IMG/VR virus record: IMGVR_UViG_3300031697_000053
DNA from: a virus
Length of the DNA stretch: 12,245 nucleotides
Strand: one strand, 5' to 3'
Positions 10,453 to 11,927 of the stretch are shown in pieces. How positions within the stretch are numbered: position 1 is the stretch's first letter; the number at the start of each line of letters is the position of its first letter. The notes under the pieces are model-generated. The model was given only the letters and a program-made list of their open reading frames with translations, made no database searches and was not told where the DNA came from. Made by a program: the position numbers and the translations under genes.

Positions 10453-10525
10453 TCGAGGAGTCGAACCCCAATACCATCTATTTGCTTGAGTAAAATATCT
10501 CGAGATATTCTAGCCTGTGTATCGA
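10453..10525 (-). ncRNA. tRNA-like element or pseudo-tRNA (T-arm and a 3' acceptor-like helix only; the centre is a perfect 16-bp palindrome)
   Basis: The minus strand contains TGGGG-TTCGACT-CCTCG, a T-arm very like those of neighbouring tRNAs, enclosed by AAATAGA...ACTATTT pairing. The 5' half cannot be folded into D and anticodon arms. In their place sits AATATCTCGAGATATT (10494-10509). The element occupies a tRNA-sized slot between two tRNAs. Confidence 0.3.
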
Positions 10526-10534
10526 TTGTTCCAG

Positions 10535-10609
10535 TGGTCCCGGGTGAACTCGAATCACCGACCTTTGCGTTATGAGCGCACTGCTACTACCGAACTGAGC
10601 TACAGGACC
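10535..10609 (-). tRNA. tRNA-Met(CAT), elongator-like
   Basis: Minus strand: GGTCCTG-TA-GCTC-AGTTCGGTAGTA-GCAG-TGCG-CTCATAA-CGCA-AAGGTC-GGTGA-TTCGAGT-TCACC-CGGGACC-A. The D-arm (GTAGCTCAGTT..GGTAG) resembles elongator tRNA-Met. Positions 27:43 are mismatched. Confidence 0.8.
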
Positions 10610-10616
10610 ATTATTG

Positions 10617-10687
10617 TGAGAATGGAGAGATTCGAACTCCCGCCGTGGGGGTTTCAACCCCATACTCTACCTCTGAGTTACATTCTC
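10617..10687 (-). tRNA. tRNA-Phe(GAA)
   Basis: Minus strand: GAGAATG-TA-ACTC-AGAGGTA-GAGT-A-TGGGG-TTGAAAC-CCCCA-CGGCG-GGAGT-TCGAATC-TCTCC-CATTCTC-A. All stems are perfect. Confidence 0.85.
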
Positions 10688-10693
10688 AAATTG

Positions 10694-10766
10694 TGGTGAA
10701 AGTGTGAGTTGAACACACATCGTCGGATTTTCAGTCCGCCACATAGACCTCCTTTGTTATTTCACC
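10694..10766 (-). tRNA. tRNA-Phe(GAA), second and divergent copy
   Basis: Minus strand: GGTGAAA-TA-ACA..TGT-G-GCGGA-CTGAAAA-TCCGA-CGAT-GTGTG-TTCAACT-CACAC-TTTCACC-A. The acceptor and T stems are perfect. The D stem has 3 bp, positions 27:43 are mismatched, and the anticodon GAA follows U33. Confidence 0.7.
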
Positions 10767-10775
10767 ATTTAAAAG

Positions 10776-10848
10776 TACCCCAGGCGAGAGTCGAACTCGC
10801 ATCATCTGATTTAGAAGATCAGTGTATTTCCAATTATACTACCGAGGC
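10776..10848 (-). tRNA. tRNA-Arg(TCT)
   Basis: Minus strand: GCCTCGG-TA-GTAT-AATTGGAAA-ATAC-A-CTGAT-CTTCTAA-ATCAG-ATGAT-GCGAG-TTCGACT-CTCGC-CTGGGGT-A. The D, anticodon and T stems are perfect. The acceptor stem pairs 7/7 but three pairs are G·U, including G1·U72. Confidence 0.75.
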
Positions 10849-10915
10849 ATTGTACAGGTTGATATTATTTACATTAAAAGTGTAGTTGTTTTGTTTGCTG
10901 TAATCAACCTTTTTG

Positions 10916-11003
10916 AGGCAGGAGAGGGAGTCGAACCCCCGGAACCCTCCGAAGAGGCCTCTTGGTTATGAGCCAAGCGAGCTGGCCACTGCTCTACCCT
11001 GCA
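10916..11003 (-). tRNA. Type II (long variable arm) tRNA with CAT anticodon. It has a Leu/Ser/Tyr-type architecture but decodes AUG (or AUA if lysidinylated)
   Basis: Minus strand: TGCAGGG-TA-GAGC-AGTGGCCA-GCTC-G-CTTGG-CTCATAA-CCAAG-[AGG CCTC TTCG GAGG GTTCC]-GGGGG-TTCGACT-CCCTC-TCCTGCC-T. The D stem (GAGC/GCTC) and anticodon stem (CTTGG/CCAAG) are perfect. The 20-nt variable arm forms a 4-bp hairpin with a TTCG loop. Positions 1:72 are mismatched (U/C), as in initiator tRNAs. The discriminator is U. Confidence 0.6.
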
Positions 11004-11006
11004 ATG

Positions 11007-11078
11007 TAGACTGACTGGGACTCGAACCCAGGACCGGCTCCGCATCAGGAAGTTGCACTACCACCGTGCTATCAGTCT
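11007..11078 (-). tRNA. tRNA-Ile(GAT)
   Basis: Minus strand: AGACTGA-TA-GCAC-GGTGGTA-GTGC-A-ACTTC-CTGATGC-GGAGC-CGGTC-CTGGG-TTCGAGT-CCCAG-TCAGTCT-A. The acceptor, D and T stems are perfect. The anticodon stem pairs 4/5, with an A/C at 27:43. The anticodon GAT follows U33, and position 37 is G, which is unusual for an A-starting codon family. Confidence 0.65.
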
Positions 11079-11115
11079 ATTTAAAATTTTTCAATATGTC
11101 AATGAACTTGTATTG

Positions 11116-11189
11116 TGAGTCTGGTGGAAATCGAATCCACGACTCCCGATTTAAAAGACCGGTGCTCTAACCAACTGAGCTACAGACCC
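11116..11189 (-). tRNA. tRNA-Lys(TTT)
   Basis: Minus strand: GGGTCTG-TA-GCTC-AGTTGGTTA-GAGC-A-CCGGT-CTTTTAA-ATCGG-GAGTC-GTGGA-TTCGATT-TCCAC-CAGACTC-A. The cloverleaf is fully canonical. Confidence 0.85.
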
Positions 11190-11197
11190 ATATCATA

Positions 11198-11249
11198 GGC
11201 CGGTGGAATTCAGATCCACAACTGCTCTAAACCAACTGAGCTACAGGCC
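11198..11249 (-). pseudogene. Truncated tRNA-Lys-like element: acceptor, D and T arms present, the whole anticodon arm absent (~52 nt)
   Basis: Minus strand: GGCCTGT-AG-CTCAGTTGGTTTAGAGC-AGTT-GTGGA-TCTGAAT-TCCAC-CGGCC. It aligns with the neighbouring tRNA-Lys across the acceptor, D-arm and T-arm. A block of about 22 nt covering positions 27-48 is missing. Confidence 0.45.
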
Positions 11250-11262
11250 TATAATATGACCT

Positions 11263-11282
11263 CATAACTACAATTAGTTATG
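11263..11282. repeat. Inverted repeat / hairpin cataacta-caat-tagttatg (extended imperfect form gacctcataac...gttatgtaggtc)
   Basis: An 8-bp perfect stem with a 4-nt loop lies just beyond the 5' (minus-sense) end of the truncated Lys-like element. It is flanked by further imperfect complementarity. Confidence 0.4.
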
Positions 11283-11293
11283 TAGGTCGTTAC

Positions 11294-11329
11294 TGTTTAT
11301 ATGTTTGTTTATATGTTTGTTTATATGTC
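11294..11329. repeat. Tandem repeat, 3 x 12 nt (tgtttatatgtt)
   Basis: Reads tgtttatatgtt tgtttatatgtt tgtttatatgtc, directly adjacent and non-coding. Confidence 0.6.
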
Positions 11330-11355
11330 ATTATTTTTATTATTTTGTGTCTTAA

Positions 11356-11402
11356 AAACGAAAAAACCCGATAAAAAATTAATTTTTACCGGGTTTTTAT
11401 AC
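11356..11402 (-). terminator. Rho-independent terminator (aaaaacccg / cgggttttt stem with a ~19-nt loop), bidirectional in form. It sits between the promoter-4 leader and the tRNA-Lys block
   Basis: aaaaaacccg (11361-11370) pairs with accgggttttt (11388-11398). On the minus strand the stem is followed by TTTTTTCGTTTTT. On the plus strand it is followed by tttttat. Confidence 0.5.
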
Positions 11403-11421
11403 TTTATATCCTTCTTCTGGA

Positions 11422-11463
11422 TCATAGCAAATACCCGGTACCTGATTTAATAATCATCACCAT
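11422..11463 (-). CDS. Candidate 13-codon leader peptide (MVMIIKSGTGYLL) inside the leader downstream of promoter copy 4
   Basis: Minus-sense AUG GUG AUG AUU AUU AAA UCA GGU ACC GGG UAU UUG CUA UGA. The codons GGU ACC GGG UAU lie over the upstream half (11433-11440) of an antiterminator pairing. There is no obvious SD sequence, but no gene in this window has one. This is highly speculative. Confidence 0.15.
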   Translation of the reverse strand: MVMIIKSGTGYLL

Positions 11464-11534
11464 AAAAAATCTTCTTTTTATTATATTTACTATTTGTTGC
11501 ATTGAAGTTGTTATTTCTTTGTTTTTACTTATTG

Positions 11535-11567
11535 AATATTATATATACATCAAATTTAAAAAGTTTA
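11535..11567 (-). promoter_or_regulatory. Copy 4 of the bipartite promoter-like motif, pointing leftwards into the leader and the tRNA block
   Basis: Plus strand reads aatattatatatacatcaaatttaaaaagtttatgc. In minus sense this is CATAAACTTTTTAAATTTGA-TGTATATATAATATT. It lies about 70 nt upstream of the mini-ORF and about 140 nt upstream of the terminator. Confidence 0.45.
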
Positions 11568-11695
11568 TGCTTTTGTTTAATTATTTTTAAAATTTATTCC
11601 CATTCACCTTTTGCATCTCCGTTTATGGTATTAATTTTTCCATTATTTTTCTTTTGTTTTTATATCTATACAAAATATCAAAAAATATTAATTAG

Positions 11696-11767
11696 TAGCC
11701 CAGCCCGGTAACGATCCGGGGTCTCCGCCTTGAAAGGGCGACGACATAACCTCTAGTCCACAGGGCC
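11696..11767 (-). tRNA. tRNA-Glu(TTC)
   Basis: Minus strand: GGCCCTG-TG-GAC-TAGAGGTTAT-GTC-G-TCGCC-CTTTCAA-GGCGG-AGAC-CCCGG-ATCGTTA-CCGGG-CTGGGCT-A. Its layout is like E. coli tRNA-Glu (3-bp D stem, CUUUCA loop). The T-loop ATCGTTA is non-canonical (no T54/A58). Acceptor positions 6:67 are U/U. Confidence 0.7.
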
Positions 11768-11777
11768 ATATAAATTG

Positions 11778-11849
11778 TAATCCGACGGGGAATCGAATCC
11801 CGATTAACGGGTCGAAAACCTGTAGGCCTAACCGTTAGACGATCGGATC
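11778..11849 (-). tRNA. tRNA of uncertain identity. The best parse gives anticodon TTC with G37, but the anticodon arm is poorly paired
   Basis: Minus strand: GATCCGA-TC-GTCT-AACGGTT-AGGC-C-[T]ACAGG-TTTTCGA-CCCGT-TAAT-CGGGA-TTCGATT-CCCCG-TCGGATT-A. The acceptor pairs 7/7 with G1·U72, and the D stem is good. The T stem pairs 4/5, with an A/C at the T-stem 53:61 position. The anticodon stem needs an A/C pair and an extra nucleotide at position 26. The identity call is unreliable. Confidence 0.5.
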
Positions 11850-11857
11850 ATTTTGTT

Positions 11858-11927
11858 GGGATAGCTGGATTCGAACCAACGACCTTCCCCTTTCCGAGGA
11901 CGCGCTAACCACTACGCTATATCCCTG
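11858..11927 (-). ncRNA. tRNA-like element with good acceptor, D and T arms but a purine-rich, U33-less segment in place of the anticodon arm
   Basis: Minus strand: GGGATA-TA-GCGT-AGTGGTTA-GCGC-G-TCCTCGGAAAGGGGAAGGTC-GTTGG-TTCGAAT-CCAGC-TATCCC-AA. No 5-bp stem with a 7-nt loop can be drawn in the 21-nt central segment, which contains no T at all between CGG and AGG. A CCTC-GGAAA-GGGG mini-hairpin is possible. Confidence 0.45.

Follow-up and report, generated by a model that had tools for sequence, protein, structure and literature searches.

Three tRNA-derived elements that probably do not decode, interspersed in the tRNA gene array of an uncultured phage

The DNA analyzed here is a stretch of 12,245 nt from IMG/VR virus record IMGVR_UViG_3300031697_000053, part of the genome of an uncultured phage, and the whole of it is referred to below as the window. 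Among the proteins encoded in it are an endolysin of the LysM/CHAP type, an 804-amino-acid protein that resembles the major vault protein, and a metallophosphoesterase (phrog_547). It also contains an array of transfer RNA (tRNA) genes, and among these lie three tRNA-like elements, designated E1, E2 and E3, that a first-pass annotation of the DNA had described as degenerate. All three are real and tRNA-derived. Each is homologous to tRNA and damaged in at least one way that is not compatible with decoding: Rfam does not recognize E1 or E3, and E2 has a 2-nt deletion in its anticodon loop, no U33 and an A1.A72 mismatch.

ARAGORN and Rfam call the same 14 tRNA genes in the window, every one of them on the minus strand. 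Thirteen of these form the array at 10273–12086, which runs on past the right end of the window with genes for Asp, Trp and a normal Asn tRNA (contig L049). Paralogues are numerous – two tRNA-Phe(GAA), two tRNA-Glu(UUC), five tRNAs with the anticodon CAU, and two tRNA-Asn, one of them just outside the window – and duplication is therefore taken to be ongoing. At the 3’ gene ends, nearly all of the array tRNAs and E2 have the discriminator A followed by C (...AC), with no full CCA; E3 ends in A-AC and E1 in A-U.

The three elements lie on the minus strand, like every tRNA in the window, and so they are read on that strand here. Most neighboring tRNA genes in the array are just 2–9 nt apart. E2 is 5 nt from the next tRNA gene, E1 is 7 nt from it, and E3, which sits inside a 109-nt gap (10425–10533), is 21 nt from it. 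Because the elements match the tRNAs in strand and in spacing (5–21 nt), their co-transcription with the array is plausible. A terminator scan found an intrinsic-terminator-like hairpin followed by a T run at 11362–11398 on the minus strand (read from 11398 to 11362). It splits the array into an upstream unit of tRNA-Asn, E2 and the two tRNA-Glu genes, and a downstream unit that begins with E1 and tRNA-Lys, includes E3 and ends with tRNA-Val, so that it lies between E2 and the pair E1/E3. In a sigma-70 promoter scan, sites were no commoner than in shuffled sequence; the scan was uninformative, and the transcription units stay inferred.

E1 (11197–11250) is a relative of tRNA-Lys that has no anticodon arm. 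Read from 11250 to 11197, its sequence is AGGCCUG-UA-GCUC-AGUUGGUUUA-GAGC-AGUU-GUGGA-UCUGAAU-UCCAC-CGGCCU. Its closest paralogue is the intact tRNA-Lys(UUU) gene 7 nt downstream, at 11115–11189 on the minus strand (ARAGORN; Rfam 69.2 bits). In a global alignment of the two, 45 of 53 aligned positions are identical (85%), clearly the top score among all array tRNAs, and there is a single 19-nt gap that corresponds exactly to the anticodon stem-loop and two neighboring bases. This agrees with the first-pass annotation, which had taken 11198–11249 to be a copy of tRNA-Lys with the anticodon arm deleted.

The acceptor, the D arm (intact) and the T arm are retained in E1. Compared with tRNA-Lys, the acceptor has two pairs replaced on both sides, pair 1 (G-C to A-U) and pair 4 (U-A to C-G), and at pair 2 a G.U has become G-C. 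The T loop has changed from UUCGAUU to UCUGAAU, three differences that leave the near-universal U55 and C56 swapped (55 is C, 56 is U), and one nucleotide is missing from the 3’ acceptor strand, so that the acceptor/T-arm stack is bulged. No Rfam tRNA match to E1 was found even at E≤10. By sequence, E1 is a diverged paralogue and not a fresh copy of the neighboring tRNA-Lys, and several independent lesions (the arm deletion, the three T-loop changes including 55 and 56, and the 1-nt acceptor deletion) are what decay predicts. E1 is identical in 7 of the 7 strain contigs that cover it, an invariance matched by invariant spacers. Folded with its flanks (11190–11260, minus strand), E1 has its acceptor extended to a 12-bp stem (AUAUUAUAGGCC/GGCCUAUGAUAU), with a minimum free energy (MFE) of −25.3 kcal/mol and z = −3.46; the flanks consist of A and T only, and the extended pairing may partly be chance. 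Between the terminator and E1, at 11295–11330, is a tandem repeat with a 12-nt unit (TGTTTATATGTT on the plus strand). Its copy number varies between strains, and one strain contig (L033) is short of one unit.

E3 is located at 10446–10483 on the minus strand and was found by its T-loop motif and by folding (z = −2.75). It is made up of a stem resembling an acceptor, a T arm and a discriminator, AAAUAG(A)-UGGUAU-UGGGG-UUCGACU-CCUCG-(A)CUAUUU-A, and has no D or anticodon arm. The sequence GGTTCGACTCC at 10457–10467 is an exact match to the T-loop consensus. The window has nine such matches where chance would give 0.36; every one is on the minus strand, and eight fall within called tRNAs. The T arm, UGGGG-UUCGACU-CCUCG, is followed by ACUAUUU-A, and AAAUAGA is found six bases before it. 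Because this 5’ acceptor strand (AAAUAG) is directly beside the T arm, E3 makes a self-contained, closed minihelix. The T arm is canonical with two wobble pairs and the acceptor has six pairs, giving a stack of 6+5 bp in the tRNA register, or 8+5 bp in the MFE fold of the allele in L160/L049, around the loop UUCGACU. As with E1, there was no Rfam tRNA match even at E≤10.

Ten nucleotides upstream of the minihelix, a hairpin at 10491–10512 (minus strand) is predicted by folding on the perfect 16-nt palindrome AATATCTCGAGATATT (10494–10509). The region 10453–10525 had been annotated as a T-arm/acceptor minihelix whose 5’ half is replaced by a perfect palindrome. Both the minihelix and the palindrome are there, but the replacement is not: E3 has its own 5’ acceptor strand, and the palindrome forms a separate hairpin. 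A full cloverleaf for E3 that uses the palindrome as an arm was rejected, with no acceptor partner upstream, and the ARAGORN calls of E1 and E3 at relaxed thresholds (“tRNA-???”) were rejected as forced, mismatched folds that came with many antisense false positives. One short metagenome contig (L026) ends at the palindrome hairpin.

The integration of mobile elements pervasively leaves behind incomplete tRNA genes, as a rule their 3’ parts (PMC9897764), and an IS605-family TnpB gene is present nearby in one strain (L165). E3, and E1 with it, might on these grounds be scars of integration, or attP-type pieces of tRNA that stem from site-specific recombination at tRNA genes. The anatomy of the elements largely refutes this, and it is the least probable of the explanations considered. 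The acceptor of E3 (AAAUAG/CUAUUU) is AT-rich and of phage type, unlike those of bacterial tRNAs, with both strands present; E1 keeps both of its ends and has lost the middle, which integration duplicates do not do; and there is no integrase in the window.

E2 (11855–11926, minus strand) is far closer to an ordinary tRNA. ARAGORN, Rfam and MFE folding describe a Pro-like tRNA body with an A1.A72 mismatch and an anticodon arm that is 2 nt short. The D and T arms are canonical, six of the seven acceptor pairs form (all but A1.A72), and the acceptor/T-arm stack is full. ARAGORN calls the element tRNA-Phe(GAA), and it matches Rfam RF00005 at 48.6 bits against a gathering threshold of 29, with a 2-nt gap in the anticodon loop of the cmscan alignment. 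The MFE structure is a clean cloverleaf in which the anticodon hairpin at 11886–11900, polymorphic among strains, is UCCUC-GGAAA-GGGGA, a 5-bp stem with a 5-nt loop. The ARAGORN fold instead has 4 bp and a G.A mismatch; its 7-nt loop is CGGAAAG, in which position 33 is G, and nucleotide 26 is missing. Neither fold combines a 5-bp stem with a 7-nt loop and U33. Anticodon loops have 7 nt with very few exceptions (PMC9897764). With a loop 2 nt short, E2 would thus present no normal anticodon.

The first-pass annotation had seen at 11858–11927 a tRNA body with neither U33 nor any possible 5-bp stem. The body and the absence of U33 stand, while the statement about the stem does not, as UCCUC pairs with GGGGA around a 5-nt loop. 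The annotation had named a valid anticodon-arm fold found by software as evidence against its view, and formally E2 is called as a tRNA (Phe-GAA, 48.6 bits), albeit with a non-canonical arm. The underlying point is sound: the loop is either one of 5 nt or one of 7 nt with G33, and neither is a normal anticodon loop.

The 3’ half of E2 matches more than 119 metagenome loci in a scan, and the 23-nt string of its T arm and acceptor also occurs in many ordinary tRNA-Pro(UGG) and tRNA-Gln(UUG) genes. The D arm is of the Pro type. The best full-length matches, both in GenBank phages and in the scanned loci, are tRNA-Pro genes (74–80% identical), the closest relatives being tRNA-Pro(UGG), and the array has no tRNA-Pro apart from E2. 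The D arm, the full-length matches and the lack of another tRNA-Pro in the array indicate that E2 is a tRNA-Pro-like gene with a crippled anticodon arm, and that the Phe label is an artefact.

If the ARAGORN model were taken at face value, E2 would be a working tRNA-Phe(GAA) with a 4-bp anticodon stem and a 7-nt loop – a third, nuclease-resistant copy. The discriminator A73 is that of tRNA-Phe, GAA-A is retained in both loop alleles, with G or A at “position 33”, and phage tRNA-Thr variants that lack one anticodon-stem pair are functional and resist P2-OLD (PMC12445682). However, that published short stem merely opens pair 27-43 with the length unchanged, whereas E2 is missing nucleotide 26 or one stem pair, which makes its arm one pair shorter than that of any known decoder. 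Position 33 is never U, and in the MFE structure C32-G38 closes as a Watson-Crick pair, leaving 5 nt. The body is Pro-like and has the A1.A72 mismatch, and two canonical tRNA-Phe(GAA) genes are already present in the array. A decoding role for E2 is thus very improbable.

The explanation we favor, with a probability of roughly 55%, is that E1–E3 are what remains of tRNA paralogues in an array that changes fast. They would no longer decode, and they are probably transcribed together with the array and probably still cleaved at their acceptor/T-arm modules. The array would be under continual reshaping by duplication, deletion and patchy recombination, which would leave such elements behind. E1 would come from a tRNA-Lys lineage that lost its anticodon arm by a single 19-nt deletion and then decayed in the T loop and the 3’ acceptor strand. 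E2 would descend from a gene like tRNA-Pro that has since lost the C1-G72 pair and 2 nt of the anticodon loop, and E3 would be the acceptor/T-arm remainder of a tRNA after loss of the D and anticodon arms. The elements would be transcribed with their neighbors and, because each retains an acceptor/T-arm module, RNase P and the 3’-end processing enzymes probably still cut at them. They would then be passive punctuation of the precursor, yielding short RNAs without a decoding function. If so, E2 is a gene that a standard tool mislabels as tRNA-Phe, inflating the tRNA count and distorting arguments from codon usage, and E1 and E3 show that such arrays turn over by internal deletion as well as by gain and loss of whole genes.

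The longer gaps of the array that hold no tRNA are structured, though not tRNA-like. There is a hairpin directly upstream of each element: at 11258–11288 (minus strand), immediately 5’ of E1, 13 bp with one bulge (−15.8 kcal/mol, z = −4.72, with 0 of 200 shuffles as good); at 11927–11998 (minus strand), directly 5’ of E2, where a 72-nt spacer that is not tRNA-like folds end to end around GTCGAC (−16.6 kcal/mol, z = −3.78) and is invariant in every strain covering it; and at 10491–10512, the palindrome hairpin of E3. The 66-nt gap at 10849–10914 (minus strand) has a weaker stem (z = −1.9) and a sub-threshold Rfam match to the Dictyostelium class I RNA (31.8 against 41.5 bits). This and the other weak Rfam matches in gaps (YrlA and miRNA families) were below threshold and were treated as chance. 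The Rfam mascRNA-menRNA model had no match inside E1, E2 or E3, and one weak match to it overlaps tRNA-Val.

Such an arrangement could be a cis-acting one, with each tRNA-like module and its 5’ hairpin directing cleavage by RNase P/Z or RNase III/E or protecting the precursor ends, much as the plant mitochondrial t-elements and the mascRNA module of MALAT1 do. These too are degenerate tRNA shapes with an acceptor/T-arm stack, and in them that stack is enough for recognition by RNase P/Z. They are eukaryotic or organellar and have been demonstrated by experiment, while the phage elements are known from sequence and folding. An acceptor/T-arm stack is the minimal shape cut by RNase P and extended by the CCA-adding enzyme. 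A stack of about 12 bp with a T loop is predicted in E3 (12–13 bp), in E2 (full) and in E1 (with a bulge and an altered loop). E1 is also the first structured element after the terminator and repeat region and may head the second transcription unit, and the hairpins, like E1, are invariant in all strains. We consider a cis-acting role unlikely. Most of the array tRNAs are 2–9 nt apart and need no extra signals, and invariance among strains that are 99% identical says little. A predicted outer stem around E3 is broken by the change at 10441 in one strain (L160), and the extended leader-trailer pairing at E1 would hinder RNase P.

Searches with two open reading frames (ORFs), a small one on the right of the array and one on the left of the endolysin, yielded 14 contigs from the same phage species (96–100% identical), and several JGI and ENA metagenomes contain identical or near-identical contigs. 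GenBank phages, IMG/VR and the protein searches gave no distant relative with the array, only strains in that identity range. The whole window had generic tRNA-Met matches only among GenBank phages (near mode). An IMG/VR search with the endolysin returned 25 loci whose common part is only the lysis cassette (9238–10263). The cassette is also the only part of the window found in the IMG/VR contigs L001–L003, at 67–76% amino-acid identity, and its occurrence there by itself argues for a mosaic module. In IMG/VR, the 365-amino-acid protein found nothing and the 804-amino-acid protein found one relative (L030), 43% identical, on a contig that stops before the equivalent region. The L030 contig likewise carries a tRNA array, in which genes for Ile, Thr and Gln are duplicated and two of these have C33. 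Protein searches with queries of 365, 178 and 50 amino acids found near-identical strains on short contigs, and a 74% relative (L038) that ends before the array. An 18-mer from the E2 anticodon arm had three chance matches in IMG/VR, in coding DNA, and a pattern of its D arm through T loop had none there. From these comparisons, the array does not appear to be conserved. The first-pass annotation had proposed related phages as a check on conservation of the elements: the strains carry them, and the nearest relatives by lysis cassette, L001–L003, have no tRNAs at the array position.

The differences between strains are clustered. In the region 8900–12245 of the window, compared with L033, L158–L164 and L034–L037, they form short bi-allelic patches (7–60 nt) that reassort among contigs, which looks like short-tract recombination. 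Such patches occur at 10200–10233 in the endolysin gene, at 10408–10456 in tRNA-Met1 and E3, at 11889 and 11895 in E2, and at 12062–12120 in the 88-nt tRNA-Asn and the 3’ end of an ORF. Several short assemblies end inside the array (e.g. at 10438, 10493, 11869 and 11902).

E2 has four alleles, more than any other element of the array. L033, L036, L159 and L161 share a variant with two G-to-A changes, one in the loop (11895) and one at 11889 that converts U.G to U-A. A further G-to-A change, at 11901 immediately 5’ of the anticodon hairpin, is found in L034. In L035, the most divergent strain, the 5’ half of E2 is GGCGCAGUCUGGUUAGCGC, with a textbook Pro D arm, and the contig stops right before the anticodon arm. 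In E3, both wobble pairs of the T stem are Watson-Crick pairs in L160/L049 and L164 (10456 U to C, 10454 G to A). For comparison, the D stem of the 88-nt tRNA-Asn has a full compensatory change between strains, A13-U25 to G13-C25, which argues that this gene is under structural constraint.

Elements of this kind are found in other arrays. A comparison set of 129 fetched loci, mostly phage-like tRNA-rich contigs, yielded 785 ARAGORN calls, of which 7 have loops of 6 or 8 nt and 21 lack U33. In the 120 loci surveyed for T loops, 51 of 505 exact motifs lie outside called tRNAs, many in large arrays and kept between related contigs. Arrays of this sort thus ordinarily include degenerate tRNA-like pieces.

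One case stands out. Six related contigs (L041, L119, L132, L133, L147 and L157) share an orthologous tRNA-like gene between tRNA-Gly(GCC) and tRNA-Gly(UCC/CCC), for example at L133:822–906 and L147:3406–3488, with a T arm and acceptor identical to those of E2. The body of this gene is 100% identical in all six, with no variable column, while the flanks diverge. Its anticodon hairpin occurs in five sequences: GCCUU-CUUGAGG-GAGGU, the same with CUUGAUG, CCCC-AUACAA-GGGG, GCUCC-AACAA-GGGGU and GCCUC-CACAA-GAGGU. The loops thus have 7, 6 or 5 nt, an ACAA loop motif is conserved, and one stem change is compensatory (C-G to U-A). Among the four closest contigs, there are 11 variable columns in the 15-nt anticodon arm, compared to about 8 in the surrounding 250 nt. 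A pattern for this hypervariable family had no matches in IMG/VR. The loop AACAA also occurs on a different body at L141:12421–12492. Next to the hypervariable gene, and conserved across the six contigs, is a tRNA-like element of about 62 nt (L133:~905–975) made of an acceptor, a single middle hairpin and a T arm.

Several of these observations weigh against the elements being simple relics. The body of E2 scores like its functional neighbors (48.6 bits against 40–70), and its lesion is limited to the anticodon arm and pair 1-72. E2 has 6 differences in about 227 nt compared with 0 in 288 nt of the adjacent 72-nt spacer, and a plain neutral relic should not vary faster than the spacer beside it. 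The acceptor of E1 differs from that of tRNA-Lys by two double changes that preserve pairing, which implies that its ancestor evolved under structural constraint. Every stem change seen among the strains keeps pairing: U30.G38 to U-A and U13.G22 to C-G in E2, and the two in the T stem of E3. These are four events, and since half of all stem transitions keep pairing, p is about 0.06 by our own estimate, which is weak and not statistically compelling; short recombination patches or template-switch mutation at quasi-palindromes would yield the same pattern without selection. Finally, in the six contigs a loop-shortened tRNA-like gene of an unrelated family appears to have persisted under constraint on its body, which for E2 is an analogy and not direct evidence.

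Some of these observations also lend weight to another explanation, in which E2, and possibly E1 and E3, are functional decoys or inhibitors that titrate host defence enzymes targeting tRNA. The targets envisaged are anticodon nucleases, acceptor-end toxins, and modification or processing enzymes, and a tRNA-like RNA without a normal anticodon loop would escape the usual inactivation. E2 varies more than any other element of the array, with changes that center on the anticodon hairpin and keep its stem, and the six-contig family is a parallel to it in its invariant body and shortened, variable hairpin. The window also encodes a protein resembling 2H phosphoesterases, with two HVTL motifs, a fold used in the healing of RNA ends. 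Phage tRNAs are thought to replace host tRNAs cut by defence nucleases, and under this pressure they evolve in the anticodon arm, where they mainly differ from host tRNAs (PMC10264068; PMC12445682).

On the other hand, the literature searched contained no published report of, or precedent for, anticodon-less tRNA decoys. In one tested case, a resistant phage tRNA-Thr facing P2-OLD replaced the host tRNA with no competitive inhibition (PMC12445682). E1 and E3 lack the loop that anticodon nucleases generally recognize, and neither can form the L shape, given the degenerate T loop of E1 and the missing D arm of E3. Recombination patches, or template switching at quasi-palindromes, could also account for the clustered polymorphism, and conservation does not extend beyond the strain level. 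We regard the decoy explanation as improbable for this phage. A broader claim is slightly less likely still: that phage arrays contain a class of maintained, non-decoding tRNA-like RNAs, E2 and the six-contig genes among them, that serve as uncleavable decoys or inhibitors against host immunity targeting tRNA. Members of such a class may have either an intact body with a fast-evolving anticodon hairpin and a loop of 5–6 nt, or no anticodon arm at all. Were decoys to be the answer, anticodon-disabled tRNA bodies would be a new counter-defence mechanism beyond the replacement of host tRNAs destroyed by nucleases. The strain hot spot in E2 and the hypervariable-arm family are concrete sequences on which to test this. 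Between the two possibilities raised in the first-pass annotation, decoys and decaying duplicates, the evidence fits decay better – the several independent lesions of E1 and E3, the non-decoding form of E2, and the frequency of relics elsewhere – while decoys keep a low probability.

Among known systems, published tRNA pseudogenes and fragments of prokaryotes and phages are like E1–E3 in their descent from tRNA, their disabling deletions and their position next to intact paralogues, and like E2, the supposed tRNA-Phe, such pseudogenes are missed by gene finders or given the wrong isotype (PMC9897764). Most published fragments are one-sided and come from integration or from CRISPR spacers (PMC9897764). 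In contrast, E1 and E3 have lost their middle and E2 merely 2 nt of the loop, and all three remain in register within the array.

Nuclease-resistant phage tRNAs are a second group for comparison. They include T5-type anticodon-loop variants (PMC10264068), the tRNA-Thr that withstands P2-OLD (PMC12445682) and a tRNA-Lys that neutralizes PARIS (PMC11464382). As in E2 and the six-contig family, their differences concentrate in the anticodon arm. Unlike the window elements, they have a 7-nt loop, still decode, and replace the cleaved host tRNA; E2 departs from them in loop length (5 nt) or in position 33, which is not U, and E1 and E3 are armless. The first-pass annotation had also pointed to stable RNAs of unknown function from the tRNA cluster of phage T4, and the tRNA region of T4 is indeed reported to give rise to two small transcripts of unknown role (PMC3014915). 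These, RNAC and RNAD (species 1 and 2 stable RNAs), are like E1–E3 in being small non-tRNA elements among phage tRNA genes. The T4 RNAs are discrete, stable transcripts, while E1–E3 are known from sequence alone, and the feature in common is location in a tRNA cluster.

Two of the array tRNAs have long variable arms, are class II-shaped, and carry unusual anticodons. One, at 11999–12086 on the minus strand, is the 88-nt tRNA-Asn, with anticodon GUU and discriminator G73; a normal 75-nt tRNA-Asn is found just beyond the window (L049:758–832). The other, of 89 nt, is at 10915–11003 on the minus strand and has the anticodon CAU.

Among the proteins, a 141-amino-acid ORF at 5256–5681 (minus strand) contains the two HVTL motifs and has a weak Pfam match to the CPD domain of fungal tRNA ligase, and no sequence match in the PDB. 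The motifs and the match suggest a 2H phosphoesterase, whose task could be the healing of RNA ends or the breakdown of cyclic nucleotides. The 804-amino-acid protein (487–2901, minus strand) combines an SPFH/Band 7 domain with shoulder and repeat domains of the major vault protein, which is unusual in a phage. The lysis cassette, a 123-amino-acid ORF and the LysM endolysin on the plus strand, interrupts the minus-strand tRNA region between tRNA-Met (8990–9063) and the array. In one strain contig, an IS605-family OrfB/TnpB gene is inserted directly upstream of the 123-amino-acid ORF (L165:300–1463).

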